This document shows positions 10,921 to 24,859 of a stretch of DNA of 64,000 nucleotides, piece after piece (positions within the stretch are counted from its first letter, which is position 1; every line of letters begins with the position of its first letter). Under the pieces are notes generated by a model. The model was given only the letters and a program-made list of their open reading frames with translations. It made no database searches and was not told where the DNA came from. Location of the stretch: IMG/VR virus record IMGVR_UViG_3300031784_000006; one strand, given 5' to 3'. Source of the stretch: a virus (lineage: Duplodnaviria > Caudoviricetes). The translations under genes were made by a program, and so were the position numbers.

Positions 10921-11274
10921 GAATTGGTTAGACCAAGTTAATTCCCCAGTTGAATTTGTTTTTAAGAAGTAAGAACCAGCAGGATTTTCTGGAAAAGTGT
11001 ATGTTGTGATTCCAGAGAGAGTGTTCGGAGCTTTAAAGGAAATATGATTTGTTCCGTCTTTATCTACAAGATTTAAGCGGAGAGAAGTACTTGCATCTTC
11101 TCTTCCCCAATAACGATGAGAACCGAAGAATTTATTACCATTAACAGACGTGTTTAGTCCTACAAATAAATCATATTTGTCAAGTGTTAATGCAGGTTCA
11201 CCTGGACGAAGAGCAGGAATAGTTGCCGCCGCCCCAATATTACCACGCTTAAACTGTAAGATTGGTGAAGCCAT
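8446..11274 (-). CDS. Tail-fibre/adhesin-like protein with PKD-like domains (module A, gene 1)
   Basis: 942 aa; N-terminal ILQFKRG...LRPGEPAL anchor motif; YDVDWGDG and YTMGWGDG PKD signatures; C-terminal ~820 aa paralogous to 27676..31722. Confidence 0.8.
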   Translation of the reverse strand: MASPILQFKRGNIGAAATIPALRPGEPALTLDKYDLFVGLNTSVNGNKFFGSHRYWGREDASTSLRLNLVDKDGTNHISFKAPNTLSGITTYTFPENPAGSYFLKTNSTGELTWSNQFPSVSVSGVVTATNYYGEGGALTLGTPTDSSITSNGALNTLTTSTKIVDSIDDLNELAFNIIRNTAVTNVDFSSNTLAGGSPLAVTLTVTSSGNANRYDVDWGDGTTTSNYSSASIPHTYSDANGGLFSITLTAKNNTGVGAGSSFTTSKTDYITLYTPNPVVGFALYRGSSGGSALSGNDLYVVEGESLYLDNNTTNTSGATVDYTMGWGDGSSNDSIANDSASGGAGAGAARLQHTWSQGTNSSTGTDTLTLTLNSHNTANPGVIPATGTVALKVYDDSPAAPDGLSSKTLTNVTSVGTSPKLASGFTDNTGGAVLSAGNDVNRVTGGSAEAGPISTFAYNANSGTLTANVNGSSDGSTTLTSGDDSGTYTSLVITSESDYQLLNSTGATTTFAASTFYPGLYKGFKAKVSKLVSNLNTGLNSMQLLHSATGNTNTVEFVKDDMTGTPTVSVAGASLAENVSGTYRYVSGIPYYNTGSPSLTLSGVTVTNIVGQTYTNQSNIVEVDTGTNQEGTSSAGTTDSDYTYSQINGSSSMLTGGIPNANTGTSSAYTLGNLTVPITSSSVRTVDRVKVRARNVNGISGYSSDIGTNIQVHTAAQSGISELAIAVSDSLGNGTYTDDGKRIYDFGPGIATDTPSYNSSTNFYTNNPYSEGSAPAGITTTREAVVRLGNITHNQVNYSTGYLPVGPDFSSNRSGTQYFTFAFRRQAVANVNVNITSSGITGLWIAAPGTSIDSTSTLNGWLRADTVYAGSGVPGANTGAGGNGSNGCADTPGDVISSGTSLSGSYTLTLGSENLSNATGNVLLVRIALASGQSVTSLSIT

Positions 11275-11977: not shown

Positions 11978-11985
11978 TATTTATC
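11978..11985 (-). promoter_or_regulatory. T4-type late promoter (GATAAATA)
   Basis: Motif in the 30-nt gap upstream of ATG 11957. Confidence 0.55.
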
Positions 11986-11987
11986 TA

Positions 11988-12344
11988 TCAATATAATTTA
12001 ATCTCTTTGTAATATGAATTAGTTACTTCATTAATTTTTCTTTTTATCTCTGCTCTTTTATCATTGGTAATATAAACACTTCGAGCAAGTTCAACAAACT
12101 TTTCTCCAAAGTCTTGCTTCTTTTCCAGTTCTCTCAATTCATCTTCAATCTTCCAGAGTTTTAAATTTACCTCACGCAATTCATTCATATATTCAAAAGT
12201 AAATTGCGTGAGAGTATTTTTAATTTGATTCAAGTCCTCAAGTTCTTTAATGACATATTCATTGTTGGTAAACATAGACTTAATTTCAAGAATTGAAATC
12301 TTATCTAATAGTTCACCTACAGATACTGGAATTGTGATTTTCAT
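11988..12344 (-). CDS. DUF6165-like protein
   Basis: IPVSVGELLDKISILEIK ... LWKIEDELR ... ARSVYITNDKRAEIKRKIN signature. Confidence 0.75.
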   Translation of the reverse strand: MKITIPVSVGELLDKISILEIKSMFTNNEYVIKELEDLNQIKNTLTQFTFEYMNELREVNLKLWKIEDELRELEKKQDFGEKFVELARSVYITNDKRAEIKRKINEVTNSYYKEIKLY

Positions 12345-13111
12345 AATACTTCCTTTACTCTATTTTGAATTGTTTGAATTCTATTTTGCCACCAATTCAA
12401 AACTGGCATATTATCTACAGGTTTTTCTAGTAGTGACTCACATTTATCTAATGCATCATTCCAAGTTTCCGCAAATACCCAAGGAGGATTTTCTTCATAC
12501 TTAAATGTAGATTCAATCTCTTCCTTCGAACCAACGACAACAGGTATAGATCCATTCATAGATGCTTCATAAAGTCTAAAACAATCTAGTGACGAATTGC
12601 CTCTCCCACAAGGAACAAATATAGATTTAGAATATATCTTGCACATTAAATCTTTGGGTAAAGACTTTCCTACAAAGTGTTTTGGAATACTTTTGAAAGT
12701 ATCAATCATTTTTTGTCTGTCTGTTTTAATTTCTCCAAGAAAAGACCAATGTAATTCTTTTTTCTCTTTGAATGATTTGCATCCATTTGTATATCCAAGA
12801 GGAATATGAATAGTATTTGGTGTGTAACTATATTGTGGGTGATGATATTGTCTTAAAAACAAATCACAATAATTTCCCAACTGATTGAACTGATGTAGAT
12901 TTTCCGCAATCAATTCATCAGAAAGGCAAATTATAATTTTTGGTTTTGTTTTTTGAACAATTGATAATATTTGGTTATATGAATGTGCTCTTGATGCAAA
13001 AACAAAAACATCCCCCACATCATTTAGATTATGAGAAACTTCTCCTTTGGATAAAATGTCTTTTAATAGAAAGTCAGTTTCCCATAATCCATTTTCAATT
13101 ACAATCTTCAT
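12341..13111 (-). CDS. Exostosin-like (GT47-like) glycosyltransferase
   Basis: WSFLG...SIFVPCGRGNSSLDCFRLYEASMNGSIPVV motif. Confidence 0.65.
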   Translation of the reverse strand: MKIVIENGLWETDFLLKDILSKGEVSHNLNDVGDVFVFASRAHSYNQILSIVQKTKPKIIICLSDELIAENLHQFNQLGNYCDLFLRQYHHPQYSYTPNTIHIPLGYTNGCKSFKEKKELHWSFLGEIKTDRQKMIDTFKSIPKHFVGKSLPKDLMCKIYSKSIFVPCGRGNSSLDCFRLYEASMNGSIPVVVGSKEEIESTFKYEENPPWVFAETWNDALDKCESLLEKPVDNMPVLNWWQNRIQTIQNRVKEVL

Positions 13112-14652
13112 AGATTAAATGTTGTTTTAATTTCATTGATAATTGTGGGATTCTTGCAAACCACACCTAAACCAAAAGAATGTTCAAATGTAAATTTAGG
13201 CATATCGAGTTCATCAAAGAACTTTTTAACTCCATACTCCTTTCCTTCATATTGTTCTACGCAAGTGTCGTGCATTAGAATAATACCATTATCAGAAACA
13301 AACTTACTCCAAGTTTCAAAGTCTTTTTTAACGTCTTCGTAGTGATGACTACCATCAATGTGAAGAATGTCAATTTTTTTATCCCAGGTTTCTGCTACTT
13401 CATTAAAATCACCTTTGATAAGAGTGACATTATCTTGAAGATGGAGTTTTTCTCTCTTCATATTTACAAAATTATATTGGTAAGAAGAATGTTCTCCAAC
13501 AAAATCATCACCAACAAAGTTATCAACACCATAAACGTGACCGATTCTTGGAATAGCAAAGGAGAATGTTGAGAACCCATAATCAACTCCCAAATCAACA
13601 ATTACTTTTGGATTTAAAAACTTAACTAACCATTCGGCAAAATTACGATGACCTGACCAAGCTGTTGCTGGTGTGTCATCAAGATTATTCAAGAAAAGAT
13701 TGTCAATGGCATCAGTTCTTTCTTTGAGTCTTAATGTATCTGGATTAAATCCTGATGCAAATACAATAATGTTTGGATTTTGTGTAAGTTGACCGATTTT
13801 CAGGAGATGAGTGAATGCATTACCCATAGCATTTCCACCAATATTCATTGCCTCACTTACAGCATGGAAAGCATAATTAGATGCTTGTTGAATATTTTGA
13901 AGATTCACTAAAGCAATACTAGACATAATGAATACATCAATTCTTTGTGGGTCAAAATATGCTTTAGAAACATTGAGATACTCTTGACCCATCTCTAATG
14001 CTTTTTGGAAGTTCTTTACTTCAAAATAATGCTTGAAGATAAACCAAATATAATATGAATTTTCTGGATTATTTTGATACTCTCTTTCACAAATTGAAAG
14101 ATAGAAAAGTTGCTTATCAATACTTGGTTGAATTGTTTTTGTAATCTTAATTGTCGTATCTACTGCAACTTCACCAAGATGTTCTTCAGTAGGAAGGAAC
14201 ATTGGTGTTTCGTGAACTGCATTAACCCAAGTATAGTTTTTAGTTCTATGAAAACGAACATGTGCTGTTTGACCTAGAGTTGGTTCTTCTTCTCCAACTT
14301 TATCATATCGTTCGTGATTAAATGCAGTAAATTCTCCAGAGATTACTTCAAAACCTTCAGGGAAAAACTCATCAAGGTCTTCATTAAAGTCCAGAGAAAA
14401 AGCCCAATCTGTTTTTACATAAGAAAGTGCTTGATTTCTTGCTTTGGAGAAATCAAACTCATCTCTGCTTTGAGGATGTTCGTGAACTTCAATACCAGCA
14501 TCCTTAAGAAGTTGAACCGTATTATCTGTACTGCCAGTATCAACTACAACTGTATGAGAAAATTTCTTTGAATTTTCAATAAACTTTTCAATGTTCTTTT
14601 CTTCGTTTTTTGCAATAGCATAAAGTGTGATGTTCATAAAAATTTTTCCCAA
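13108..14652 (-). CDS. GT2 glycosyltransferase / helical (TPR-like) / class I SAM-methyltransferase fusion
   Basis: N-term AIAKNEE...VVVDTGSTD...FSLDFNE; C-term IVDLGVDYGFS...ILHIDGSHHYEDV...GIILMHD. Confidence 0.75.
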   Translation of the reverse strand: MGKIFMNITLYAIAKNEEKNIEKFIENSKKFSHTVVVDTGSTDNTVQLLKDAGIEVHEHPQSRDEFDFSKARNQALSYVKTDWAFSLDFNEDLDEFFPEGFEVISGEFTAFNHERYDKVGEEEPTLGQTAHVRFHRTKNYTWVNAVHETPMFLPTEEHLGEVAVDTTIKITKTIQPSIDKQLFYLSICEREYQNNPENSYYIWFIFKHYFEVKNFQKALEMGQEYLNVSKAYFDPQRIDVFIMSSIALVNLQNIQQASNYAFHAVSEAMNIGGNAMGNAFTHLLKIGQLTQNPNIIVFASGFNPDTLRLKERTDAIDNLFLNNLDDTPATAWSGHRNFAEWLVKFLNPKVIVDLGVDYGFSTFSFAIPRIGHVYGVDNFVGDDFVGEHSSYQYNFVNMKREKLHLQDNVTLIKGDFNEVAETWDKKIDILHIDGSHHYEDVKKDFETWSKFVSDNGIILMHDTCVEQYEGKEYGVKKFFDELDMPKFTFEHSFGLGVVCKNPTIINEIKTTFNL

Positions 14653-15332
14653 TCAATACAAGGTGATAATAAGTCTGCTTGACAATGTGTAGAATAACCG
14701 GGTAAACAAGAGATTAAATAGTTTCCTCTTTGATTGAGATCTAAAAACTTTGAATGGTCTTGTGTCGGTTCAGTATCTGTTGAATACTTCTGATGTATGT
14801 ATAAGTCTTTTAAAAGTGTCTTATATTTTACAGCAAAGGTATTTGTAGTGGAAGGAACTGGTTTCCAATGAGAACTTTCAGTAATCAAAATCTTACTCAT
14901 TAGTTCAGCATACATCTCTTGATACTTGTCTCTGTGGTCGTACAAGGTTACATAAGAAACTGGAAGTGTAAATCCCTCCATTAAAATCTTATCCCATTCT
15001 GGGCGGTGTACATAATCATCTTCAAGGAAATAGATGATGTCTTCTGAAGAATGATTTTGAGTTTGAATATATTCTAAAGTTTTAAGAAAACTCTTTGCTT
15101 CTCCTCCACAATTGATTGTATAAACATTCTGTTCTTGAGATAGGAAAGTATCTTCTATCTTCCCATAATGTTCGTCATAGATGATTGTGTATTTGGTGGT
15201 TTCTGGATTGAGTGTATTCTTAAAGTTTTGGAATACCTTTTCCTTATCCCACCAAGAAGGTCTCTGCTTTCCCGGACTTTCCTGTATCTTTGAGTAATAG
15301 CAGTGCCTTAAATATACATTAATTTTTTTCAT
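14634..15332 (-). CDS. Putative GT-A fold glycosyltransferase
   Basis: IIYFLEDDYVHR acidic motif; start moved from 15395 to MKKINV at 15332 (coupled to the upstream gene). Confidence 0.55.
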   Translation of the reverse strand: MKKINVYLRHCYYSKIQESPGKQRPSWWDKEKVFQNFKNTLNPETTKYTIIYDEHYGKIEDTFLSQEQNVYTINCGGEAKSFLKTLEYIQTQNHSSEDIIYFLEDDYVHRPEWDKILMEGFTLPVSYVTLYDHRDKYQEMYAELMSKILITESSHWKPVPSTTNTFAVKYKTLLKDLYIHQKYSTDTEPTQDHSKFLDLNQRGNYLISCLPGYSTHCQADLLSPCIDWEKFL

Positions 15333-16122
15333 TGAGTTTCTCCAAATCGTATTCATTCCACCAAGACTTCCAATCAATAAAGAAATCTCTATCATACTCT
15401 CCTTGTAAATGAAGTGTTAATGATGGGATAGGTGTAAAGCAAAAATGTCCTCTTTCATAATAGATTTTGCAAATACTATCCATTTCCATTGTTTCACTCA
15501 CTTCACTGGTTCCCATTTTGTGAAATAAATCCCAGTGCTTTCTTATAATACCTATGTGAGTCATCAAAGTGACTGCTGGATGAATATTAGTTCTCCAATA
15601 TCTGTCCTTTGATACTACAATATTACAAGAAACAGCAGTATTCTCTGCTTGATGATATTCTGCTGGTTTATTAAATGGAAAGATACTTGCTGGAGCATTT
15701 AGATTACAACTAAACTGATTAATAGCGTGTATCATCAGTTCAACAGAGTTTTGTTGATGAAGAAAATCATCCTGAACAAAATATACCCAATCTTTCCCAA
15801 AGTCTCTTCCGTGCTCGTAACACCTCAAGATAGAAGGCATAATACCATAAGTCTCAAGATGAGTTAGATTAGTTTTAAACTTTGCGATGGTGATAAGTTT
15901 TTTTAGAATATCTAAAAACTCTTTGTCCGAGTGGTCATCAAAGATTTGTAGTTCAATCTCATAATCTGGATAATGTTCTTGTGTGTAATTGAGACTATCA
16001 ATCAAAGAAAAGATACACCTTGAAGAAACTTCAATCTTTGGTGCCTCACAATATCTTCCAGAATCCTTATCACGATTTCCTTTTGAATGTGTCTGAACAA
16101 CAACTAACAAATGAGTTTTCAT
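15319..16122 (-). CDS. Putative GT-A fold glycosyltransferase
   Basis: IFDDHS and WVYFVQDDFLH motifs; paralogous pattern to the neighbouring gene. Confidence 0.55.
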   Translation of the reverse strand: MKTHLLVVVQTHSKGNRDKDSGRYCEAPKIEVSSRCIFSLIDSLNYTQEHYPDYEIELQIFDDHSDKEFLDILKKLITIAKFKTNLTHLETYGIMPSILRCYEHGRDFGKDWVYFVQDDFLHQQNSVELMIHAINQFSCNLNAPASIFPFNKPAEYHQAENTAVSCNIVVSKDRYWRTNIHPAVTLMTHIGIIRKHWDLFHKMGTSEVSETMEMDSICKIYYERGHFCFTPIPSLTLHLQGEYDRDFFIDWKSWWNEYDLEKLNEKN

Positions 16123-16901
16123 AAGTCAAACTTGGAATAAAGTTTTACATTCTCTTCTCCTATTACATCAATAGGATTTTGTGAAATTTTAGCAAGATTT
16201 GGACGAATATCGTGAAGCCCTTTAAGTCCCCATTCTTCATCCTTTTGTTCTCCACAAGCATTTTCAATATTATTAAAAGTATTTGTATGAGATGGAACTT
16301 CTAGAAAGTTGTAAATCTTATTAAGTTCTTCTTCTGGATTATTTACAAGAGCATTATATTCAACTAAATGAACCCAATCTGGATACTTATTGAGTCCATA
16401 AATCATTGATTCATAAGAAGGAGCAACATAATATCTCCAAATGTATTCGGCACGATTGTTATTTGTGATTGGTAGATTATCTTTTCTTAAATGATTATCA
16501 ATGAAGTTATTTTCGTGTTGAGTTCTTTCTATAAGTGAAATATAAGATGTAAGAACTTCTGGTATAGAACGATAAGTTGCTACAATCTTTGGTTTGTTAG
16601 AAAGAAACATTTGAACTGTATCAAGGTTCTTTCCCCAAAACCGATGCTTATCTAGGATTGTTGATTTTGGAATGTGATTATAAAAGTTTGCAAGAACTGC
16701 CTTATAGACATTATAAGAGATTGCCTTGCGGTCAAAGGTGAATTGAATATCTAAAGTATTAAATGATTTCTCAATATCAGTCACTACATCACCCAATGGA
16801 GATGTTGGTGATACATAAATGTCTGGATGTTGATTGAGAAGAGACCCAAGTAATGTAGAACCACTTCTTGGAAGTCCTCCAAGAAAATATAATGTCTTCA
16901 T
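16119..16901 (-). CDS. Sulfotransferase family protein
   Basis: 5'-PAPS loop GLPRSGSTLL; ILDKHR; YRSIPEVLTS; LVEYNALVNNPEEELNKIYNFL. Confidence 0.8.
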   Translation of the reverse strand: MKTLYFLGGLPRSGSTLLGSLLNQHPDIYVSPTSPLGDVVTDIEKSFNTLDIQFTFDRKAISYNVYKAVLANFYNHIPKSTILDKHRFWGKNLDTVQMFLSNKPKIVATYRSIPEVLTSYISLIERTQHENNFIDNHLRKDNLPITNNNRAEYIWRYYVAPSYESMIYGLNKYPDWVHLVEYNALVNNPEEELNKIYNFLEVPSHTNTFNNIENACGEQKDEEWGLKGLHDIRPNLAKISQNPIDVIGEENVKLYSKFDL

Positions 16902-16925
16902 AGTTTATTGCTTTCTTATTATGTA

Positions 16926-18113
16926 TTATATCACAGGGTCTATGTATGTGAGTGCTGATGTATGAAAATATGCAGAACTTACTTGTTTCCAGTTGGTTCC
17001 TCCGGCAAAGGTAGTGACTGGAGTACTTATGTTACCTGCTATTACTGCGTTTCCAAGTCTTCCACTATTACCAGAACCCCAAGTCCATAGAGTTCCATCA
17101 GTCTTGATTGCTGCTGTATGAGAAATTCCACCACTTACTTGTTTCCAGTTGGTTCCACCAGCAAATGTGGTGACTGGAGTGGATACATTGGTTGTTACTG
17201 CGTTTCCAAGTCTTCCATTAGCACCATTACCCCAAGTCCATAAGGTTCCATCAGTCTTGATTGCTGCTGTATGAGCATTATTATATCCAGAACTTACTTG
17301 TTTCCAGTTGGTTCCTCCAGAGAATGTGGTGACTGGAGTGGATACATTGGTTGTTGTTGCGTTTCCAAGTCTTCCATAACCACCAGCACCCCAAATCCAT
17401 AAGGTTCCGTCAGTCTTGATTGCTGCTGTATGAGAAACTCCAGAACTTACTTGTTTCCAGTCGGTTCCACCAGCAAAGGTAGTGACTGGAGTACTTATGT
17501 TACCTGTTGTTACTGCGTTTCCAAGTTTTCCTTGACTACCAGAACCCCAAGTCCATAAGGTTCCATCGGTCTTGATTGCTGCTGTATGAGAATTTCCAGA
17601 ACTTACTTGTTTCCAGTTGGTTCCTCCAGAGAATGTGGTGACTGGAGTACTTATGCTACCTGTTGTTGCTCCGTTTCCAAGTCTTCCATTACCACCAGAA
17701 CCCCAAGTCCATAGAGTTCCATCGGTCTTGATTGCTGCTGTATGAGAATTTCCACCACTTACTTGTTTCCAGTTGGTTCCACCGGCAAATGTGGTGACTG
17801 GAGTACTTATGCTACCTGTTCCTACTGCGTTTCCAAGTCTTCCACTAAAACCAGTACCCCAAGTCCATAGAGTTCCATCGGTCTTGATTGCTGCTGTATG
17901 TTCTCTTCCACCACTTACTTGTTTCCAGTTGGTTCCTCCAGCAAATGTGGTGACTGGAGTGGATGTATTAATTATTGTTGCGTTTCCAAGTATTCCATTA
18001 GAACCAGAACCCCAAGTAAATAAGTTCCCTTCACGAAATAACTCAGCAGGAACAAAGATATCATCAAAACTATAATCAAGTCCGTTTTCTCTAAAGTTAT
18101 AAAAGGTAGGCAT
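16926..18113 (-). CDS. RCC1-repeat 7-bladed beta-propeller protein 1
   Basis: Seven ~52-aa repeats STPVTTFAGGTNWKQVSxGxxHTAAIKTDGTLWTWGxGxxGxLG. Confidence 0.9.
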   Translation of the reverse strand: MPTFYNFRENGLDYSFDDIFVPAELFREGNLFTWGSGSNGILGNATIINTSTPVTTFAGGTNWKQVSGGREHTAAIKTDGTLWTWGTGFSGRLGNAVGTGSISTPVTTFAGGTNWKQVSGGNSHTAAIKTDGTLWTWGSGGNGRLGNGATTGSISTPVTTFSGGTNWKQVSSGNSHTAAIKTDGTLWTWGSGSQGKLGNAVTTGNISTPVTTFAGGTDWKQVSSGVSHTAAIKTDGTLWIWGAGGYGRLGNATTTNVSTPVTTFSGGTNWKQVSSGYNNAHTAAIKTDGTLWTWGNGANGRLGNAVTTNVSTPVTTFAGGTNWKQVSGGISHTAAIKTDGTLWTWGSGNSGRLGNAVIAGNISTPVTTFAGGTNWKQVSSAYFHTSALTYIDPVI

Positions 18114-18135
18114 TGGGATTTCTTGGAAACGACTT

Positions 18136-18495
18136 TTACTCTATAAAAATCACAGGAGTGTTCATTTTTTCACTCCACTCTTGAAGATATTGTCTAACTT
18201 CGGAATTCATTTCTTTATTATTTATTCTCAATGCTTTTAGATATTGACCATTCTCATTTTGCTCCACAGACACCAGTACATCACATTTATCGGGTCTCAT
18301 TTCTTCGGGAAGTAAATGCTGACTCCAAGCACATTGATAATTTCTACAAGATTCTGGTCGTCCTTTATGAACTCCACATCCATTACATTCTAAAAACTTA
18401 CAAGACTTTCCTGCTCCAAACTCCCAAGCAAAAGAATCACCAATTAACCAAGTACAACAAGCAGTGCATTCTCCACAATCACGAAACATATTCAT
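18136..18495 (-). CDS. YkgJ-like CxxCxxCC cysteine-cluster (Zn/Fe-S) protein
   Basis: CGECTACC...CKFL...CGVHKGRPESCRNYQC. Confidence 0.75.
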   Translation of the reverse strand: MNMFRDCGECTACCTWLIGDSFAWEFGAGKSCKFLECNGCGVHKGRPESCRNYQCAWSQHLLPEEMRPDKCDVLVSVEQNENGQYLKALRINNKEMNSEVRQYLQEWSEKMNTPVIFIE

Positions 18496-19163
18496 ATGTT
18501 TATATAAGATTTCTCATTGTATATATCCTCATAAAAATCACCAATATCTCCATTCATTCTAGAATGAAATAGACATTTTGCATTGCAATTTGGATTACTA
18601 CCAATCCAGAGTTCTCTATCAAGTCTATAATCACTTTCCAAATATTTGTCATCTAATGTATTAATGTAAGAAGAATTTGCCCACCAAAAATTACCAGCAA
18701 AAAAAGAAGTGTTTTCTTTTGGATAACTCATAGAACCATCACCCCATAAAGTTGGTCCTGTTGGATAATGGTCAGTACCACAACAATCATAATCTTCCAA
18801 ATATTTTATACATTCTTTCCATTTATCAATCACAAAATATTCCATATATAATCTCCAAGCATTTGTTTGAAGATTGGTTTTACTTGCTCCTTTAGTATGA
18901 AAATAAAGAACCTTATAGTCTGAATTTTCCCTACAAAAATCTCTTAAGGACATTAGGGTTTCTGTTTCTTCTTTCCAATTATAGTTTCTTTTTATGACCG
19001 CTTTTTCTGGTACATTGAATAATTCCTGATCTCCATTCACTCCAAAGTGAATATGAGATGCATCTTTGACAAGACCTGAAGTATATAACCTATGCAATTG
19101 TTGCTGATAAACGAAGGCACCTAAACCTATTTGGGCAATATGATAAAAGATTGCGAGTTTCAC
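18492..19163 (-). CDS. Glycosyltransferase-like hypothetical protein
   Basis: KVLYFHTKG ... FFAGNFWWANSSYI motif common in phage glycosylation clusters. Confidence 0.45.
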   Translation of the reverse strand: MKLAIFYHIAQIGLGAFVYQQQLHRLYTSGLVKDASHIHFGVNGDQELFNVPEKAVIKRNYNWKEETETLMSLRDFCRENSDYKVLYFHTKGASKTNLQTNAWRLYMEYFVIDKWKECIKYLEDYDCCGTDHYPTGPTLWGDGSMSYPKENTSFFAGNFWWANSSYINTLDDKYLESDYRLDRELWIGSNPNCNAKCLFHSRMNGDIGDFYEDIYNEKSYINI

Positions 19164-19948
19164 GAATGATATACTCCTCCATTTTCTCCAGACATTCCTT
19201 TAACCATAGTAAGACCAAGATTTGAAATACTAATGATATTGTCTTTATTGATAAAACGATAAAGAGAATGTTCTACATCAGTGCCAGCAGTATATTGAAT
19301 CATTCTTTCCATATACTTAAATGCTTTCTCAAGTGCTTCTACTGCATCATTAAATAATATTCTATCAAAAGACCAGAGACCAGTAATCATCATACCTTTT
19401 GCACCATAGAGATATGCATAAACATTCTCAAGTTCTTTCTCATCATAGTTTTCTGTTTCTTGAGGTAGATACTCATATCTTTTTAGAATATACTTACCTT
19501 CTAGAAACTTACTTTGATAATCTTTTATATCAAAATCATCGTTCAATAAGTATCTACCAGTAAGTTTAAAAACTCTTTGACTATCACTGAATAGATTGTG
19601 TTTCTTGATTACATAAAGGGTATTTAATAATCCTCTTGTTTCTAATAATGATTTGCCATAAGTAATCAATTCTGGTCTTTCTTCGAGATTCTCATAGATT
19701 TGTTTTAGAACTGGTTCTTCACAAAACTCTAAAAACAAATCTGCTTTTTCTTTAAGAATATCTTTTTGTTTTTCTTCAATCGGTCTAGAAGAGCACTCAA
19801 ATAAAACCACATAAGACTCTGGAACTTTATTACGAATACATTCAATCGTTTCTAATGTTTGATTAAATCTTTGCTCTTCATCATAAGCACTGAACTTATC
19901 TTCTTGAAAGTGTTTGAGTGCTGAACCAACTAAAAATAAAAATTTCAT
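19160..19948 (-). CDS. Glycosyltransferase-like hypothetical protein
   Basis: RFNQTLETIECIRNKVP ... RVFKLTGRY pattern; coupled by ATGA overlaps. Confidence 0.4.
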   Translation of the reverse strand: MKFLFLVGSALKHFQEDKFSAYDEEQRFNQTLETIECIRNKVPESYVVLFECSSRPIEEKQKDILKEKADLFLEFCEEPVLKQIYENLEERPELITYGKSLLETRGLLNTLYVIKKHNLFSDSQRVFKLTGRYLLNDDFDIKDYQSKFLEGKYILKRYEYLPQETENYDEKELENVYAYLYGAKGMMITGLWSFDRILFNDAVEALEKAFKYMERMIQYTAGTDVEHSLYRFINKDNIISISNLGLTMVKGMSGENGGVYHS

Positions 19949-20403
19949 AGGTAATCTGTATTAAAACTAATAATAATTCTTTCTTCTGTTTCTTCTTCTG
20001 TGAAGTGAACTAAATCACTTGAGAAGATTACTAACAACCCAGGATAAGGTTTGATTGATGTATCTGGAAAAATGAGTGGAGTGCTTCCAGAAATATAAAA
20101 TGCTCCACTTATAATACTTTCTTCGTGCTTATGTGCTTTGAGTTTATTTCCTGGTTGCGAGATATTAAACCAACTATTGATAAATTTTAGAGGTGGAATA
20201 TAATACTTATTACAATATAGTCTTACATATTGCTTAAGAATGTTTTTTAATCCAGTCAATTCTGGGTACATTAAAGTAGGCATTCCGTGATTATAAGTAG
20301 AAACACCTTTTGTTACAAGTCCGTGAGAAGAAGTTTCTATTTCCAGAAGTTTGCTCTTGATGGTATTTAGATTGAGAAAAGAAAGGTTATACTCCTCTAT
20401 CAT
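19945..20403 (-). CDS. 2OG-Fe(II) oxygenase-like protein
   Basis: SWFNISQPG...AHKHE..ISGAFYI...LVIFSSDLVH...RIIISFN. Confidence 0.7.
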   Translation of the reverse strand: MIEEYNLSFLNLNTIKSKLLEIETSSHGLVTKGVSTYNHGMPTLMYPELTGLKNILKQYVRLYCNKYYIPPLKFINSWFNISQPGNKLKAHKHEESIISGAFYISGSTPLIFPDTSIKPYPGLLVIFSSDLVHFTEEETEERIIISFNTDYL

Positions 20404-21727
20404 TCATAAACTCTCCAAACTCTTTAATGGTGGCGTCCCAAGTTCTTGGTTTCTTTTGACGGAATAGATGAACATTATCTCCATACCACCAAGACTTACC
20501 AGTAGAACTTGTCCATACATAATACTCCATAATCGGCACAAATACACAAACTTCTTTACCCATTGATGCTGCAATATGAGCAATAGAAGTGCAAGAAGTA
20601 ATCACCAAATCCATTTGAGATACGATAGAGAATGTATCTGTAAAATCACGATTTGGAATATCAAAAGTCTTTACATCATAACCTTCTGGTGGTTGTTCAT
20701 CTGGTAGTTGAAGTGAATAGAGTGATGCATTGGTTTTTGAAACAACATCAAATAATCCATCAGCATTCACTGAACGAAAATGTGCTTGTTCAAATCCAGA
20801 ACCAGAGTTCCAGAACATACCAATCTTAAACTTTTGGTCTTCTTGTAAATAAGAATATTGTTCTTCTTTTTCTGGAAGTGGTTTGATATATGGTGTTTGT
20901 CCTAAATCTTCTACTTTAAGATTGAGATAGTAAGGAAGTGCAAGACCATAAACCCAACAAGCATCTTTTGGTAGTTCTGGATTATCCCAAACACACTCAA
21001 CTTCAAATCCATTGTATTGAAAGATTTTTTGTAGGTCTCTTCGTGTGGTTGTCCAGACTGGTTTCATTCCAAGTTTTTCAATGTGTTTCATAAAACGAAT
21101 GTGAATAATCTCATCACCAGCACCACACTGATTATCAATAATAATAGTTCTTCCTGGAGTTACTATTCCATTCCACTTCTCAAACTCTGGAAGTTTTCTG
21201 TTTTTATATGCCTCAACCTCTCCTGCTTTGAGGAAATGTTGAAGTCCTGTATGAATATCATCCTTACGGAAATAATGTCCTGATAGATTATGATATGCTT
21301 TTCTTTCAATCTCCTCTGGAAGTTTATATTTAAGAAGATTGAAGAGTAGTTTTTCTGCTTTCTCTTTTTGATTCAGTGCAGAATAAGAGAAAGTTTCCTC
21401 AAGAAGCAGTTCAGTATCTTGAGGATTTTGTGACTTGATTTTTGAGATTTGAGTTAGTGCTTTATCTGGATAATTATTTTGATTATATGCGTTGATTAGA
21501 TTTTTTGTGGTTGTATAGTTTTCTTCTTTTGTTTTTGTGAGTTTTAATGCTTTTTCTCCACAGATTATAGCATTTGAGAAATCTTTTATCTCAAAGAAAA
21601 TCTTGGCAACATCATTGTGTTGCTCAAAGGTTTCTGCTCTTTTACCAAATGCTTGAAGAACTTGTGTTGTAAGTTCTTTTTCTTCAAACGAATATAAGGT
21701 CTTTGCTACCAACTCAAGTGGATTCAT
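20387..21727 (-). CDS. TPR-containing GT9-like glycosyltransferase
   Basis: Helical N-terminus; GAGDEIIHIRF; DLVITSCTSIAHIAASMGK C-terminal GT-B motif. Confidence 0.75.
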   Translation of the reverse strand: MNPLELVAKTLYSFEEKELTTQVLQAFGKRAETFEQHNDVAKIFFEIKDFSNAIICGEKALKLTKTKEENYTTTKNLINAYNQNNYPDKALTQISKIKSQNPQDTELLLEETFSYSALNQKEKAEKLLFNLLKYKLPEEIERKAYHNLSGHYFRKDDIHTGLQHFLKAGEVEAYKNRKLPEFEKWNGIVTPGRTIIIDNQCGAGDEIIHIRFMKHIEKLGMKPVWTTTRRDLQKIFQYNGFEVECVWDNPELPKDACWVYGLALPYYLNLKVEDLGQTPYIKPLPEKEEQYSYLQEDQKFKIGMFWNSGSGFEQAHFRSVNADGLFDVVSKTNASLYSLQLPDEQPPEGYDVKTFDIPNRDFTDTFSIVSQMDLVITSCTSIAHIAASMGKEVCVFVPIMEYYVWTSSTGKSWWYGDNVHLFRQKKPRTWDATIKEFGEFMNDRGV

Positions 21728-21751
21728 TGTATGATTATGATGTATTTTGAG

Positions 21752-21759
21752 TATTTAGA
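21752..21759 (-). promoter_or_regulatory. T4-type late promoter (TCTAAATA) heading the modification operon
   Basis: Motif built on the TAA stop of RCC1 gene 2, 25 nt upstream of ATG 21727. Confidence 0.55.
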
Positions 21760-22981
21760 TGAAGTCTGATGATTTGATTGCTGCTGTATGAAAACCTCCA
21801 GAACTTACTTGTTTCCAGTTGGTTCCTCCAGAGAATGTGGTGACTGGAGTGGATACATTGGTTGTATCTTTGGTTCCAAGTCTTCCAAGACTACCATAAC
21901 CCCAAGTCCATAAGGTTCCGTCAGTCTTGATTGCTGCTGTATGACTTACAAGAGATGAACTCACTTGTTTCCAGTTGGTTCCACCAGCAAAGGTAGTGAC
22001 TGGAGTACTTATGTTACCTGTTGTTACTGCGTTTCCAAGTCTTCCACTATTACCAGAACCCCAAGTCCATAAGGTTCCATCAGTCTTGATTGCTGCTGTA
22101 TGAGAATTTCCACCACTTACTTGTTTCCAGTTGGTTCCTCCGGCAAATGTGGTGACTGGAGTACTTATGCTACCTGTTGTTACTGAATTTCCAAGTCTTC
22201 CATTAGAACCATCCCCCCAAGTCCATAGAGTTCCATCGGTCTTGATTGCTGCTATATGATGATATCCACAACTTACTTGTTTCCAGTTGGTTCCTCCAGC
22301 AAATGTGGTGACTGGAGTGGATGTACTAGTTATTGTTGCGTTTCCAAGTTTTCCACTACCCCCCTCCCCCCAAGTCCATAAGGTTCCATCAGTCTTGATT
22401 GCTGCTGTATGATAACCTCCAGAACTCACTTGTTTCCAGTTGGTTCCACCAGCAAAGGTGGTTACTGGAGTACTTATGATACCTGTTCTTACTGCGTTTC
22501 CAAGTCTTCCAGTAAGACAATAACCCCAAGTCCATAAGGTTCCATCAGTCTTGATTGCTGCTGTATGAGAAGCTCCAGAACTTACTTGTTTCCAGTTGGT
22601 TCCTCCAGAGAATGTGGTGACTGGAGTGGATACATTGGTTGTTGTTGCGTCTCCAAGTTTTCCAAAAAAACCATCCCCCCAAGTCCATAGAGTTCCATCA
22701 GTCTTGATTGCTGATGTATGAGCTCGTCCACCACTTACTTGTTTCCAGTTAGTTCCTCCAGAGAATGTGGTGACTGGAGTGGATGTAGTAGTAGTTATTG
22801 TTGCGTTTCCAAGTATTCCACTAGAACCATGACCCCAAACCCACAACTCTGGAGTCTTTCCAATTTCTTGAGCGATACTTGGATAAACACTCATCAAATA
22901 ATCTTTAGTTATAAATTCATAAGCAACATCAACACCATTACTTCTTCTGAAGTTAGTAGTTACTCTCTGATTAGAACTCAT
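21755..22981 (-). CDS. RCC1-repeat 7-bladed beta-propeller protein 2
   Basis: Seven repeats, framework nearly identical to gene 1 at DNA level. Confidence 0.9.
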   Translation of the reverse strand: MSSNQRVTTNFRRSNGVDVAYEFITKDYLMSVYPSIAQEIGKTPELWVWGHGSSGILGNATITTTTSTPVTTFSGGTNWKQVSGGRAHTSAIKTDGTLWTWGDGFFGKLGDATTTNVSTPVTTFSGGTNWKQVSSGASHTAAIKTDGTLWTWGYCLTGRLGNAVRTGIISTPVTTFAGGTNWKQVSSGGYHTAAIKTDGTLWTWGEGGSGKLGNATITSTSTPVTTFAGGTNWKQVSCGYHHIAAIKTDGTLWTWGDGSNGRLGNSVTTGSISTPVTTFAGGTNWKQVSGGNSHTAAIKTDGTLWTWGSGNSGRLGNAVTTGNISTPVTTFAGGTNWKQVSSSLVSHTAAIKTDGTLWTWGYGSLGRLGTKDTTNVSTPVTTFSGGTNWKQVSSGGFHTAAIKSSDFI

Positions 22982-22982
22982 T

Positions 22983-23660
22983 TTACTCTGCTACTGGTGG
23001 TTGAATTTCTTCTGGAAGTTCTCTCACAATCACATCATAAACTTCATCAATGGTCTCACAAGCATCAATCTCTTGAAGTTTTGCAAGTTCCCAATCAAAT
23101 GCTGCTTGAACTACTTTGTCAATTTCACTTACAATATATTGAAGATTTTCTGTGCTAACTTCTAACCAACCACTCAAGAACTTAAAATTATGAGAATCTG
23201 GTGCTGCACTTAACTTACTTGCAAGCAACACTCTTTCTTCTCTTGAAGTTGATACTTGAACTGAATTTCCATTAACATCTAAAGTAATTATTGTATTTTC
23301 TTTTTCTTTTCTGTATGGAGAAACTTCTTGTTTGCGAATTACTTTAACTTCTTCTAGAGTCTTATCAACAATTGGATAAGTAAATATTACTTTTATTGGA
23401 ATATCATCTTCAATATCTTCAATGATTTCCCAAGTAAAGTTTCCAATATTATGATACTTTGGATCGTGTTCTGGAACTACCTTTTCAATTGGTAGAAGAT
23501 GTGTAAGACCATCACTAAAATGAATTGGAAGGTCTGTATAACTTTGTGGAGAAATTCTTTCTTCTACTTCAAGGTCTTCTAAATCGGCATTAATGTATTT
23601 CACATTAAATCCCATTGGACCAAGTTCTAATGAGTTATTGTGAATGAGTGCGATTTCCAT
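22983..23660 (-). CDS. DUF4376-like (fibre-assembly-type) protein
   Basis: C-terminal LEEVKVIRKQEV..RKEKE...QAAFDWELAKLQEIDACETIDEV pattern. Confidence 0.55.
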   Translation of the reverse strand: MEIALIHNNSLELGPMGFNVKYINADLEDLEVEERISPQSYTDLPIHFSDGLTHLLPIEKVVPEHDPKYHNIGNFTWEIIEDIEDDIPIKVIFTYPIVDKTLEEVKVIRKQEVSPYRKEKENTIITLDVNGNSVQVSTSREERVLLASKLSAAPDSHNFKFLSGWLEVSTENLQYIVSEIDKVVQAAFDWELAKLQEIDACETIDEVYDVIVRELPEEIQPPVAE

Positions 23661-23674
23661 TATAGTTTTTTAAG

Positions 23675-23682
23675 TATTTATG
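23675..23682 (-). promoter_or_regulatory. T4-type late promoter (CATAAATA)
   Basis: Motif built on the TAA stop of RCC1 gene 3. Confidence 0.55.
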
Positions 23683-24859
23683 AGATTGGTAGGTCTGGTG
23701 TGGTTCCGGAGAAGACTGCTGATGTATGTCGAAATTCTGCAGAAACTTGTTTCCAGTTAGTTCCTCCAGCAAATGTAGTGACTGGGGTTGATTTGGTGAC
23801 TGATGTATTATCTCCAATCTGAGCATAAGCAGATGATCCCCAAGTCCATAATGTACCATCAGTTTTGATTGCTGCGGTATGAGAATCTCCGCCAGAAACT
23901 TGTTTCCAGTTAGTTCCTCCAGCAAATGTTGTGACTGGAGTTGATTTTGTGACTAATGTACTATCTCCCAATTCACCTCTAGCATTATAACCCCAAGTCC
24001 ACAAGGTTCCATCAGTTTTAATTGCTGCTGTATGATAACCTCCAGAACTTACTTGTTTCCAGTTGGTTCCTCCAGCAAATGTGGTTACTGGAGTGCTTCT
24101 ATTGGTTAATGTATTATCTCCCAAACCTCCAAAAAGATTATAACCCCAAAGCCATAAAGTTCCATCGGTTTTAATTGCTGCAGTGAAGACACCGCCACAA
24201 GAAACTTGTTTCCAGTTAGTTCCTCCAGAAAATGTTGTGACTGGAGTTGATTTTGTGTCTAATGTACTATCTCCTATTCCCCCGAATGAATTGCGTCCCC
24301 AAAGCCATAAAGTTCCATCAGTTTTAGTTGCTGCAATATGGCCAGCTCCACAAGAAACTTGTTTCCAGTTAGTTCCTCCAGCAAATGTAGTGACTGGAGT
24401 ACTTCTGGAACCTGTGGCATTAATTCCTATTTGCGAATACTGATTTTGTCCCCAACACCACAAAGTTCCATCAGTTTTAATTGCTGCTGCATGATATTGT
24501 GCAGTAGAAACTTGACGCCAGTTAGTTCCTCCAGCAAATGTAGTGACTGGGGTTGATTTGGTGACTGATGTATTATCTCCCAATATTCCAAAGGAATTAA
24601 TTCCCCAAGTCCACAAAGTCCCATCAGTTTTTATTGCTGCTTTATTTTTAAATCCACCAGCAACTTGTTTCCAGTTGGTTCCTCCAGCAAATGTAGTGAC
24701 TGGAGTGGATCTATTACCAGTAGCGTTGATTCCTAATTGGCTAACATCATTTCGTCCCCAAGTCCACAACTCATCACCAATATACTGGTCTATTAGTTGA
24801 TACTCAGTTACAAAATAATTTTCTAAATCTCCTTCTGGTGATAAGAACTGATTAGGCAT
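23678..24859 (-). CDS. RCC1-repeat 7-bladed beta-propeller protein 3
   Basis: Seven repeats, same amino-acid framework but different synonymous codons; overlaps the upstream fibre gene by 8 nt. Confidence 0.9.
   Translation of the reverse strand: MPNQFLSPEGDLENYFVTEYQLIDQYIGDELWTWGRNDVSQLGINATGNRSTPVTTFAGGTNWKQVAGGFKNKAAIKTDGTLWTWGINSFGILGDNTSVTKSTPVTTFAGGTNWRQVSTAQYHAAAIKTDGTLWCWGQNQYSQIGINATGSRSTPVTTFAGGTNWKQVSCGAGHIAATKTDGTLWLWGRNSFGGIGDSTLDTKSTPVTTFSGGTNWKQVSCGGVFTAAIKTDGTLWLWGYNLFGGLGDNTLTNRSTPVTTFAGGTNWKQVSSGGYHTAAIKTDGTLWTWGYNARGELGDSTLVTKSTPVTTFAGGTNWKQVSGGDSHTAAIKTDGTLWTWGSSAYAQIGDNTSVTKSTPVTTFAGGTNWKQVSAEFRHTSAVFSGTTPDLPIS

Follow-up and report, generated by a model that had tools for sequence, protein, structure and literature searches.

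Self-encoded glycosylation is known from giant viruses, as in the fibril glycosylation clusters of Mimivirus; A064R of chlorovirus PBCV-1 is a GT-GT-methyltransferase, and soluble glycosyltransferases (GTs) fused to sugar methyltransferases occur in these self-glycosylating viruses. Among phages, the GTs encoded by mycobacteriophages are held to glycosylate the phages' own structural proteins (Freeman et al. 2023, as cited in PMC12619734). In bacteria, FlmG of Caulobacter is a flagellin O-glycosyltransferase of 596 residues, made of a TPR region that binds the flagellins and a GT-B domain; the paper that describes it refers to the flbA literature (PMC7591256). The autotransporter heptosyltransferases TibC and AAH are GT9-related protein O-glycosyltransferases (Lu et al. 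2014, as cited in PMC7591256). The large marine cyanomyoviruses S-SCSM2R, S-SCSM1 and P-SSM2 carry GT clusters placed under 'Cell wall synthesis and modification', and cyanophage clusters of this kind are read in the literature as modifiers of the host cell surface or of DNA (PMC12801897).

The locus described here lies in a 64,000-nucleotide stretch of viral DNA, hereafter the window, and its carrier is a freshwater T4-like cyanophage. An earlier note on this DNA had described twelve tightly coupled genes with overlaps or gaps under 25 nt. An ORF check found all of them on the minus strand, at the limits given there, in one tightly packed run (g01 to g12, from 21727 to 11988), in which neighbours overlap by 4-19 nt or stand 22 or 24 nt apart. 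Two starts probably lie further inside: that of g09 at 15332, because the Atlas record begins at residue 22, and, in view of the invariant M6, that of g10 at the 14637 ATG. The island is flanked by fibre genes, namely an S74-chaperone fibre, matches to tail-fibre PHROGs and to a fibre-assembly PHROG, and a collagen-like fibre. Directly 5′ of g01 stands a conserved neighbour, an RCC1 propeller gene of 408 aa (21755..22981, minus strand), and beyond it a tail-fibre-like gene of 225 aa and a third RCC1 propeller gene of 393 aa (22983..24859, minus strand). Downstream of the island, g13 is tail-fibre-assembly-like, on the basis of phrog_3304.

The T4-type late-promoter-like motif TCTAAATA is located where it had been reported (21752..21759, minus strand), 25 nt upstream of the g01 ATG, and shares bases with the stop codon of the RCC1 gene that precedes g01. 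It differs at one position from the published NATAAATA consensus, which counts against the reading preferred below, and by itself the 8-mer was not enriched (7 found for 5.5 expected). On the minus strand, 9 of the 35 copies of [ACT]TAAATA have a start codon 10-40 nt downstream, compared to 0.83 expected; composition-matched permuted motifs reached 0-6 in the same test, and therefore part of the excess reflects the AT-rich composition of intergenic DNA. NTAAATA is found at the same distance before the g01 homologue in 14 of 16 relatives, and the window encodes a gp33-type late coactivator. The next motif of this kind, GATAAATA (11978..11985, minus strand, 21 nt before g13), marks the downstream limit of the unit. 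Sigma-70-like promoters and terminators showed no excess within the operon.

The lead enzyme g01 (446 aa, 20387..21727, minus strand) consists of an N-terminal TPR region (about residues 1-175), supported by TPR profile matches, and a C-terminal GT9-like GT-B domain, recognised in a structure model of pLDDT 84, so that its earlier label of TPR-GT9 holds. Its best whole-length match in AFDB was Swiss-Prot entry P21296, FlbA of Caulobacter (TM 0.77, E 1e-16, residues 8-443), with about 16% identity in the structural alignment. We read P21296 as FlmG because the organism, the length (596 aa) and the cited flbA history agree. The resemblance is structural, no sequence family model joining g01 to FlmG having been found. 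Further fold matches in AFDB and PDB were the TPR-GT41 protein glycosyltransferases SPINDLY and OGT, followed by GT9 enzymes, structure 3tov being among the PDB matches; the GT9 enzymes matched are LPS heptosyltransferases only. Going by the model, g01 is a candidate FlmG-like protein O-glycosyltransferase.

A second notable enzyme, g10 (514 aa, 13108..14652, minus strand), combines a GmaR/SunS-like GT2 domain, a helical linker and a C-terminal Methyltransf_24 domain, according to Pfam and profile searches. It had been labelled GT2-TPR-MTase; both catalytic parts stand and the TPR was not confirmed. The GT2 profile is closest to GmaR (1.4e-8), which we take to be the flagellin O-GlcNAc transferase of Listeria, and then to SunS (6e-6, residues 7-249). 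The best NCBIfam match was the SunS family, at 31 bits and far below the equivalog cut-off of 350 bits. The methyltransferase domain, closest to 6g7d in profile search, appears to be sugar O-methyltransferase-like.

The other genes of the run are likewise on the minus strand. The earlier note had called for HMM and structure searches on each gene; these upheld most of its labels, with weaker matches for g04, g05, g09 and g11. A 2OG-Fe(II) oxygenase of the 2OG-FeII_Oxy_5/TIGR02466 type is encoded by g02 (152 aa, 19945..20403; Pfam 1.7e-12, phrog_81 2.9e-21), a seven-blade RCC1 propeller by g06 (395 aa, 16926..18113; Pfam RCC1 1.7e-67, phrog_4219), a PAPS-type sulfotransferase by g07 (260 aa, 16119..16901; Sulfotransfer_3 5.4e-15, Sulfotransfer_1 3.9e-11) and a DUF6165 protein by g12 (118 aa, 11988..12344; Pfam 2.5e-10), the last gene, which closes the island on its 3′ side in nearly all relatives; all four had been so named. 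In the g06 alignment the scaffold is constant and the loops are variable. The first ~30 residues of g07, read as the PAPS-binding loop, matched TPST1/2 and weakly the CurM sulfotransferase in the PDB, and by these resemblances its target could be a sugar or a tyrosine. Among two proteins previously called GT-like, g03 (262 aa, 19160..19948) is confirmed by a GT-A fold (model pLDDT 80) that matches glycogenin, alpha-1,3-GalT and YeGT; its domain recurs in AFDB clusters fused to entries named GT47 and GT1 (viral-metagenome proteins), and two homologues lie inside a bacterial dTDP-sugar locus. The GT-like label is weakly supported for g04 (223 aa, 18492..19163), a member of DUF8361 (PF27674), a mostly viral family associated with glycan loci; in a Parachlamydiales MAG, three homologues of g04 stand in tandem next to nucleotide-sugar genes. 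The YkgJ-like CxxCxxCC motif noted before is present in the Cys-rich g05 (119 aa, 18136..18495; phrog_9155 6e-18), with invariant cysteines and a weak PF03692 match (E 0.7). As for the proposed pair of GT-A-like proteins, g08 (267 aa, 15319..16122), present in most but not all relatives, is a GT2 (GT-A) enzyme (Pfam 1.8e-5, above cut-off), and g09 (232 aa from the revised start, 14634..15332) is GT-A-like by an EDD(Y) DxD motif and a weak GT2 match (PF00535, E 0.099). The exostosin-like label of g11 (256 aa, 12341..13111), a gene found in a minority of relatives, has support from a weak RXYLT1/exostosin-like C-terminal GT motif (RXYLT1_C 4.4e-4, below the curated cut-off; 5.7e-5 in the L045 homologue).

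A simple hydropathy scan predicted no membrane segment in the twelve proteins (maximum KD19 1.43), and in profile searches the operon yielded no initiating phosphoglycosyltransferase, flippase, polymerase, ligase or transporter/exporter family and no lipid-carrier-related enzyme. Since peripheral GT2/GT-A enzymes of O-antigen pathways are also devoid of membrane segments, the absence of such segments is not decisive. Nucleotide-sugar genes, reported before as absent, were indeed not found among the window ORFs scanned (the 12 cluster genes, 7 flanking genes, 4 large fibre/structural proteins and 27 other ORFs of at least 90 aa; outside this set lie the partial ORF 1-468 and, at 46246-51341, a pair of tape-measure-like proteins). 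This result concerns the window only, because epimerase/dehydratase genes occur in other parts of the genome in complete relatives.

The island is syntenic in the cultured phage S-SRM01 and in 47 IMG/VR loci, with 16 architectures among the 38 complete clusters. Its 3′ half is variable and cassette-like: the variable slots of relatives hold GT25 ('LPS biosynthesis'), nucleotide-sugar enzymes and TylF/FkbM-type methyltransferases, and sugar dehydratase and aminotransferase genes are found in the variable clusters of relatives L002-L006. The family names GT25, in relatives, and WavE and RgpF, met as weak Atlas leads, come from LPS or wall polysaccharide contexts, and speak against the reading preferred below.

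Linkage to RCC1 genes extends to distant phages. In BUCT-ZZ01 and in the marine virus AG-345-E08, an FlmG-like gene (~25% identity) lies downstream of RCC1 genes beside a tail fibre, with an RCC1 gene 1-2 genes upstream in both; AG-345-E08 has CxxC and DUF8361 genes too. In a podovirus, an FlmG-like gene sits between the capsid gene and that of a stabilization protein, and its neighbours encode an FkbM methyltransferase and a GalT-like protein. For g06, phrog_4219 is the best PHROG, and RCC1 proteins of this family were detected by mass spectrometry in virions of coliphage W70 (PMC11370258); an RCC1-like protein is also among the structural proteins of GAP32 (PMC5259590). By family membership g06 is a likely virion protein and a candidate glycan acceptor, and the conserved neighbours point to RCC1 propellers no less than to Ser/Thr-rich fibres.

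On balance, we lean towards reading the operon as one for late cytoplasmic O-glycosylation of the phage's own virion proteins, possibly the RCC1 propellers. The lead enzymes resemble bacterial flagellin glycosyltransferases, and therefore the operon probably decorates the phage's own particle proteins. A soluble cytoplasmic pathway of O-glycosylation and glycan tailoring would be expressed with the late structural genes and act before particle assembly; its enzymatic steps are all proposed from family resemblance. The TPR of g01 would bind a folded or nascent phage protein, and g01 would place the first sugar on Ser/Thr; the GT2 domain of g10 would then start a second type of site, or lengthen the glycan, and the GT-A enzymes g03, g08 and g09, perhaps with g04 and g11, would extend the chain. 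The methyltransferase domain of g10 would O-methylate the sugar, g07 would add sulfate from PAPS, and g02 would hydroxylate a sugar or an amino acid, with nucleotide sugars supplied by the host or by phage genes outside the island. As acceptors, the likeliest would be the RCC1 propellers, which the island is never without (one is encoded inside it), and/or the fibres encoded next to it. If this is true, the variable 3′ half would put different glycans on different phage strains. The earlier note had also arrived at glycan assembly on virion proteins, and the soluble operon, the flagellin-GT-like fold of g01, the nearness of g10 to protein/peptide GTs, the conserved position of the promoter-like motif and the location in the fibre region agree with it; its choice of Ser/Thr-rich fibres is not favoured over RCC1 propellers.

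That the enzymes remodel, in the course of infection, a polysaccharide of the host surface (LPS O-antigen, sulfated exopolysaccharide or capsule) seems doubtful to us. Peripheral transferases would here act on host lipid-linked intermediates, for instance to block superinfection or to alter the adsorption of released phage. For the GT-rich regions of large cyanomyoviruses this reading is the established one (PMC12801897), and the GT25 and nucleotide-sugar enzymes in relatives' variable slots, the g03 and g04 homologues in a bacterial dTDP-sugar locus and the likeness of the cassette-like variability to O-antigen loci would suit it. However, no initiating transferase, flippase, polymerase, ligase, exporter or membrane segment was found, among relatives of the lead enzymes the two that are best characterised have proteins or peptides as acceptors, and the island stands within the fibre module, preceded by a late-type motif, and holds a gene whose PHROG family occurs in another phage's virions. 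The acceptor might instead be a host protein (a pilin, S-layer, outer-membrane or defence protein), as the proteins modified by FlmG, GmaR and OGT-type enzymes are cellular ones and a TPR domain implies a protein partner without telling whose; we find this improbable, given that the linkage to phage RCC1/fibre genes is kept across lineages with different hosts and that late timing would leave a modified host protein little time to matter.

A free or lipid-bound sulfated, methylated oligosaccharide, or another small product with no protein attachment, is very improbable: CurM-type sulfotransferases and the TylF/FkbM-type methyltransferases of relatives do occur in natural-product pathways too, but neither scaffold-forming enzymes (PKS, NRPS, lipid synthesis) nor an exporter were found, and a polypeptide acceptor is favoured by the TPR of g01 and by the resemblance of g10 to SunS/GmaR. 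We give scarcely any credence to hypermodification of phage DNA with glycans against restriction. Phage GTs that glycosylate DNA are known (cited in PMC12619734 and PMC12801897), and a Mom-family gene in the window implies that this phage invests in DNA modification. Yet profile searches revealed no base-hydroxymethylase and no T4 alpha/beta-GT family in the operon, and such a modification is required while the DNA replicates, which a late structural promoter would not serve. To our knowledge, a TPR-fused protein-GT fold, a sulfotransferase and a sugar O-methyltransferase-like domain are also unlike the enzymes of T4-type DNA glucosylation.

Compared to described systems, glycosylation of the phage's own virion proteins would be akin to flagellin modification. 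Like g01, FlmG is soluble and cytoplasmic, with an N-terminal TPR and a C-terminal GT-B domain; it acts on the subunits of an extracellular filament before these are exported or assembled, and its gene lies beside those of its substrates, as proposed for g01. It is longer (596 vs 446 aa), the TPR of g01 being shorter, and it transfers pseudaminic acid, whereas nonulosonic-acid genes were not seen in the window; its acceptor is flagellin, that of g01 would be a phage protein. TibC and AAH share the GT9-like GT-B fold and, in the cytoplasm, attach sugars to Ser/Thr of a surface adhesin rich in beta structure, their genes adjoining the substrate gene much as the island adjoins RCC1/fibre genes; unlike g01, they are not known to have a TPR domain. 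GmaR and SunS, the SPbeta sublancin S-glycosyltransferase, are the nearest solved relatives of the g10 GT2 domain, and both act on polypeptides in the cytoplasm, without the C-terminal methyltransferase domain that g10 carries. Mycobacteriophage glycans sit on the C-termini of capsid and tail-tube subunits (as described in PMC12619734); the cyanophage operon differs by having at least 12 genes, predicted sulfation and methylation, a flagellin-type TPR-GT and a position in the fibre module. GT-methyltransferase fusions and variable clusters with sugar dehydratase/aminotransferase genes, as in L002-L006, are shared with giant viruses, and in the fold clusters the g03 domain too recurs fused to other GT domains; giant viruses infect eukaryotes and use different GT families. 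Finally, S-SCSM2R, S-SCSM1 and P-SSM2 are also T4-like cyanophages with many GT and nucleotide-sugar genes. Their clusters carry LPS sugar synthesis genes (KdsA/B, RmlC) that are not in the present island, which in contrast has a protein-GT-like lead enzyme and alternates with genes for RCC1 proteins and fibres.

Twelve ORFs on the minus strand, running from 21727 to 11988 and called here g01 (first) to g12 (last), form the operon. Successive genes overlap by 4-19 nt or are separated by gaps of 22 and 24 nt; the start of g09 is probably at 15332, and that of g10 probably at an invariant ATG at 14637. On the upstream (5′) side are genes for a 940-aa fibre bearing an S74 chaperone domain, for an RCC1 protein, for a 225-aa tail-fibre-like protein and for a second RCC1 protein. 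Downstream (3′), a fibre-assembly-like gene is followed by 942-aa and 1050-aa structural proteins, and by a collagen-like fibre of 1340 aa that has an S74 chaperone. As fibre-type genes flank it on both sides, the island is embedded in the fibre module, where the earlier note had placed it. The 1340-aa fibre (962-4984, minus strand) contains eight Collagen stretches and a terminal S74 intramolecular chaperone domain, and by analogy with glycosylated collagen-like filaments it is a possible further acceptor of the glycan.

The window has a GC content of ~36%, and nearly all its genes are on the minus strand. It encodes T4-type baseplate, gp53, tail-tube, gp32, gp59 and gp33 proteins, as well as ThyX, PhoH and SpeD. 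Several fibre proteins are modular (24852-27674, 5277-8429, 8446-11274, 27676-31722): the 940-aa and 1050-aa proteins have the N-terminal module phrog_9417 in common, and the 942-aa and 1348-aa proteins a C-terminal module of ~500 aa, phrog_8578. Apart from the glycosylation operon, a Mom-family protein (38085-38726, minus strand; PF25680, E 3e-20) is a candidate DNA adenine modification enzyme. The sole isolate with DNA-level similarity to the window is S-SRM01, a freshwater Synechococcus myovirus of the Kyanoviridae (a quarter of the region aligns, at 77% identity), and several studies of freshwater and lake metagenomes have yielded near-identical DNA.

The operon had been proposed to start from a late promoter. 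The coding strand does carry the motif TCTAAATA at 21752-21759, 25 nt ahead of the g01 ATG and sharing nucleotides with the stop codon of the preceding gene. Like a T4-type late transcription unit, the operon has a TATAAATA-like element at around -10, a short way ahead of its first gene. By itself, the 8-mer is not over-represented (7 found, 5.5 expected), and for this motif only position and conservation carry weight, not frequency. Copies of [ACT]TAAATA were found 10-40 nt upstream of a start codon in 9 of 35 minus-strand cases, compared to 0.83 expected, and composition-matched permuted motifs used as a control gave 0-6. An NTAAATA element, mostly NATAAATA, the published late-promoter consensus of cyanomyoviruses (PMC2984593), lies equally far from the g01 start in 14 of 16 relatives, while its flanks drift. 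The two internal gaps of the operon contain no late-type motif, and sigma-70-like sites and terminators within the operon do not exceed chance; the next late-type motif, GATAAATA, is found directly past the twelfth gene (11978-11985). Given this position, its conservation, the next motif after g12 and the lack of internal promoters or terminators above chance, a late-type promoter upstream of g01 is a reasonable reading. A gp33-type late-transcription coactivator encoded in the window (PF16805, E 6e-29) is consistent with T4-type late promoters; gp55 was not seen within the window. A second copy of TCTAAATA, at 20364-20371 (minus strand), falls within the coding sequence of g02, 32 nt past its start; with no gene start at promoter distance after it, it probably arose by chance.

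The lead enzyme g01 (446 aa, 20387..21727, minus strand) had been labelled TPR-GT9, which is right at the level of folds. Its N-terminal part matches profiles of consensus TPR proteins (residues 40-172), and its C-terminal part aligns with the GT9 structure 3tov and the heptosyltransferases WaaQ, OpsX and WaaC (residues ~146-444), with no match of the GT domain to Pfam or NCBIfam models. The structural model (pLDDT 84) has ten TPR-type helices at residues 3-173, followed by a GT-B domain. Its PDB matches are SPINDLY and OGT, two TPR-GT41 protein glycosyltransferases, and one GT9 enzyme. P21296, the 596-aa ‘FlbA’ of Caulobacter, stands well ahead of all other matches in AlphaFold DB/Swiss-Prot; it covers both domains (residues 8-443, TM 0.77 by query, E 1.3e-16) with 16% identity in the structural alignment. 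We take this protein to be FlmG, since the organism, the length of 596 residues, the TPR plus GT-B build and the cited flbA literature all agree: FlmG is a 596-residue TPR and GT-B protein of Caulobacter, and the paper describing it cites the flbA literature (PMC7591256). The TPR domain of FlmG binds flagellins, which the enzyme O-glycosylates in the cytoplasm (PMC7591256).

The description of g10 as GT2-TPR-MTase held for its two ends, a GT2 and a Methyltransf_24 domain, and was not confirmed for the TPR between them: hhalign of g10 against the g01 TPR returned a single 26-residue hairpin with a probability of 3%. Among solved structures, GmaR (1.4e-8) and SunS (6.2e-6 over residues 7-249) come closest to the GT2 domain. 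Since g10 scores 31.2 bits against the SunS equivalog TIGR04195, below the cut-off of 350, its sequence makes it a relative of SunS outside this equivalog. The methyltransferase domain resembles sugar O-methyltransferases of the TylF/CmcI type. Across loci that include L010 12858-15563, L045 12157-14313 and L016 11358-13505, g10 measures 510, 715 or 901 aa, the longer forms having one or two extra methyltransferase domains (TylF-like, class I) N-terminal to GT2.

Among the other genes, family matches bore out the earlier labels of g02 (2OG-FeII_Oxy_5 oxygenase), g07 (sulfotransferase, two Pfam families above their cut-offs), g12 (DUF6165) and g06, a seven-blade RCC1 propeller. The glycosyltransferase-like labels stand for g03, which folds as GT-A (structure matches to glycogenin, alpha-1,3-GalT and YeGT), and for g08, a GT2; they are weaker for g09, with a DxD motif and weak GT2 signals, and for g11, whose RXYLT1/exostosin-like match is sub-threshold. 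In g05 the CxxCxxCC cysteines are invariant, as had been noticed, and the Pfam score is at chance level. g04 belongs to DUF8361 (PF27674), a large, mostly viral family without known fold. Profile searches of g03, g04, g09 and g11 against PDB sequences gave chance-level matches only. The g03 domain recurs in AFDB clusters, fused to entries named GT47 and GT1, the accessions being presumably viral-metagenome records. For g07, tyrosine sulfotransferases of solved structure match the first ~30 residues only, which we read as the PAPS-binding loop, and CurM matches the whole domain weakly; by homology, the acceptor may therefore be a glycan or a tyrosine. A PKS/NRPS-type product pathway was considered and rejected. 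The earlier statement that the window lacks nucleotide-sugar synthesis genes was borne out for the ORFs scanned: the twelve operon genes, seven flanking genes, four large proteins of fibre or structural type and 27 further ORFs of at least 90 aa, a set without the tape-measure-like pair (46246-51341) and the partial ORF (1-468).

RCC1 propellers recur around the island. The three seven-blade paralogues of the window (16926-18113, 21755-22981 and 23678-24859, all minus strand) have a near-invariant scaffold (STPVTTF.GGTNWKQVS, AAIKTDGTLW.WG) and loops that vary freely, as would be expected of binding proteins. In relatives, two or three propellers are joined in a single protein of 560-1550 aa, and judged by sequence the set looks like a receptor-binding repertoire. 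The best PHROG for both g06 and the upstream paralogue is phrog_4219, and RCC1 proteins of this PHROG were detected by mass spectrometry in purified particles of coliphage W70 (PMC11370258); an RCC1-like protein is also among the structural proteins of GAP32 (PMC5259590).

The island is carried by 47 IMG/VR loci; nearly all of them have g01-g07, g09, g10 and g12, whereas g08 is merely common and g11 rare. The 38 complete clusters fall into 16 architectures, and the arrangement of the window is one more. The 5′ half is constant (g01-g05, RCC1, g07), whereas the 3′ half varies and gains FkbM methyltransferases, GT25, a second 2OG oxygenase, DUF3431, DegT aminotransferase, NAD-dependent dehydratase/epimerase, and, fused to g10, the extra methyltransferase domains of the TylF-like and class-I types. 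A glycan-structure locus under diversifying selection behaves in this way. In one sub-lineage, an insertion (L002 15447-18358, with equivalents in L003-L006, L038 and L047) encodes an NAD-dependent sugar dehydratase/epimerase, a DUF3431 protein and a DegT aminotransferase, so that these phages apparently produce the amino-deoxy sugar donor themselves. In S-SRM01 the gene order of the island is the same, with a nucleotide-sugar epimerase after it, and in complete relatives (247 and 258 kb) epimerase/dehydratase genes lie ~100 kb from the island.

Homologue searches with g01 and g04 profiles returned close phage relatives only, and a genome-contig search with the g01 profile found no relative; those of g01 are in four other phage records only. 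In BUCT-ZZ01 (host Synechococcus elongatus), a tail-fibre gene and a protein of 700 aa (L049 6131-8233), deposited as ‘BNR repeat domain protein’, come immediately before a g01 relative (~25% identity). The 700-aa protein is 36-40% identical to the window RCC1 proteins, and is therefore an RCC1 double propeller, located between the tail-fibre gene and the FlmG-like gene. In the marine virus AG-345-E08 (identities 25-43%), a fibre gene comes first, then RCC1, a gene of 230 aa, RCC1 again, two short genes and the FlmG-like gene, after which follow two genes, RCC1, and several genes including 2OG oxygenase, CxxC and DUF8361 genes. In a 44-kb podovirus, the TPR-GT gene has the capsid gene on one side and a stabilization protein on the other, with an FkbM methyltransferase and a GalT-like gene adjoining. 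Across four lineages, then, the lead enzyme is associated with virion modules, and in three with RCC1 genes. Outside phages, a Parachlamydiales MAG (L053, 1900-10500) has three tandem DUF8361 (g04) genes and two g03 homologues flanking a dTDP-sugar pathway (nucleotidyltransferase, 4,6-dehydratase, sugar C-methyltransferase, 3,5-epimerase, reductase), which links both families to glycan synthesis.

We moderately favour the reading that the enzymes, which are soluble, assemble an O-linked glycan in the cytoplasm late in infection, directly on structural proteins of the phage. In this scheme, whose timing, acceptor, donor sugars, step order and placement of sulfate on the glycan we infer, g01 would pick the acceptor via its TPR and add the first sugar, and g10 would begin or lengthen the glycan and methylate it. 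Further lengthening would be due to g03, g08, g09 and possibly g04 and g11, g07 would put sulfate on the glycan, and g02 would hydroxylate a sugar or a residue.

In the literature, cyanophage glycosyltransferase clusters are seen as remodelling the host surface polysaccharide (PMC12801897). For the island we find this rather unlikely, as the hallmarks of a lipid-carrier cluster are missing: the operon contains no initiating phosphoglycosyltransferase, flippase, polymerase or transporter/exporter family, none of its twelve proteins has a predicted membrane-spanning segment, and no 19-mer exceeds a KD hydrophobicity of 1.43. A lipid-carrier (Wzx/Wzy or ABC) surface-polysaccharide cluster was rejected on these grounds. 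That the same enzymes glycosylate a host protein seems quite improbable, and that they make a free product more improbable still. Least credible is hypermodification of DNA, for the operon has neither base hydroxymethylase nor DNA glycosyltransferase families and lies in a structural module behind a late-type motif, not with the replication genes; a phage DNA glycosylation system was accordingly rejected.

For T4-like cyanophages of lakes and oceans, we tentatively suggest that a flagellin-type cytoplasmic O-glycosylation system might place strain-variable methylated and sulfated glycans on RCC1 propeller receptor-binding proteins, a cassette-swapping glycan code that would add a second layer of adsorption specificity or protection to the hypervariable protein loops. 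Glycosyltransferase-rich regions of cyanophages are routinely classed as host-surface or DNA modifiers. Should fibres or RCC1 propellers be decorated by the island, cyanophages abundant in fresh and marine waters would bear a hidden glycan layer on their host-recognition apparatus, differing between strains (16 architectures in 38 clusters). This would bear on host range, on adsorption to mucilage/EPS, on stability and on the reading of ‘auxiliary metabolic’ sugar genes in viromes, and would offer a source of compact soluble protein glycosyltransferases with TPR targeting domains. As S-SRM01 is cultured and its island syntenic, the question is directly testable.

The literature searched contains no flagellin-type TPR-GT leading a variable glycosylation/sulfation/methylation operon in the fibre module of a T4-like cyanophage, and the S-SRM01 paper does not discuss the island. 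Self-glycosylation is known in giant viruses, and to our knowledge phage-encoded glycosylation of phage particles has been shown in mycobacteriophages only. Virion glycosylation by phage enzymes is known there (as cited in PMC12619734); a flagellin-type, TPR-GT-led variant in a cyanophage fibre module would be new. In the mycobacteriophage-type system, phage glycosyltransferase genes adjoin structural genes, and so does the island. With the GT2 polypeptide glycosyltransferases of the SunS/GmaR type, g10 has a homologous GT-A domain, and it does not reach the equivalog score. With FlmG, g01 has in common the N-terminal TPR, the C-terminal GT9-like GT-B domain and the fold over its whole length, and the binding of the acceptor by the TPR and the transfer of sugar to Ser/Thr are predicted for g01 as well.
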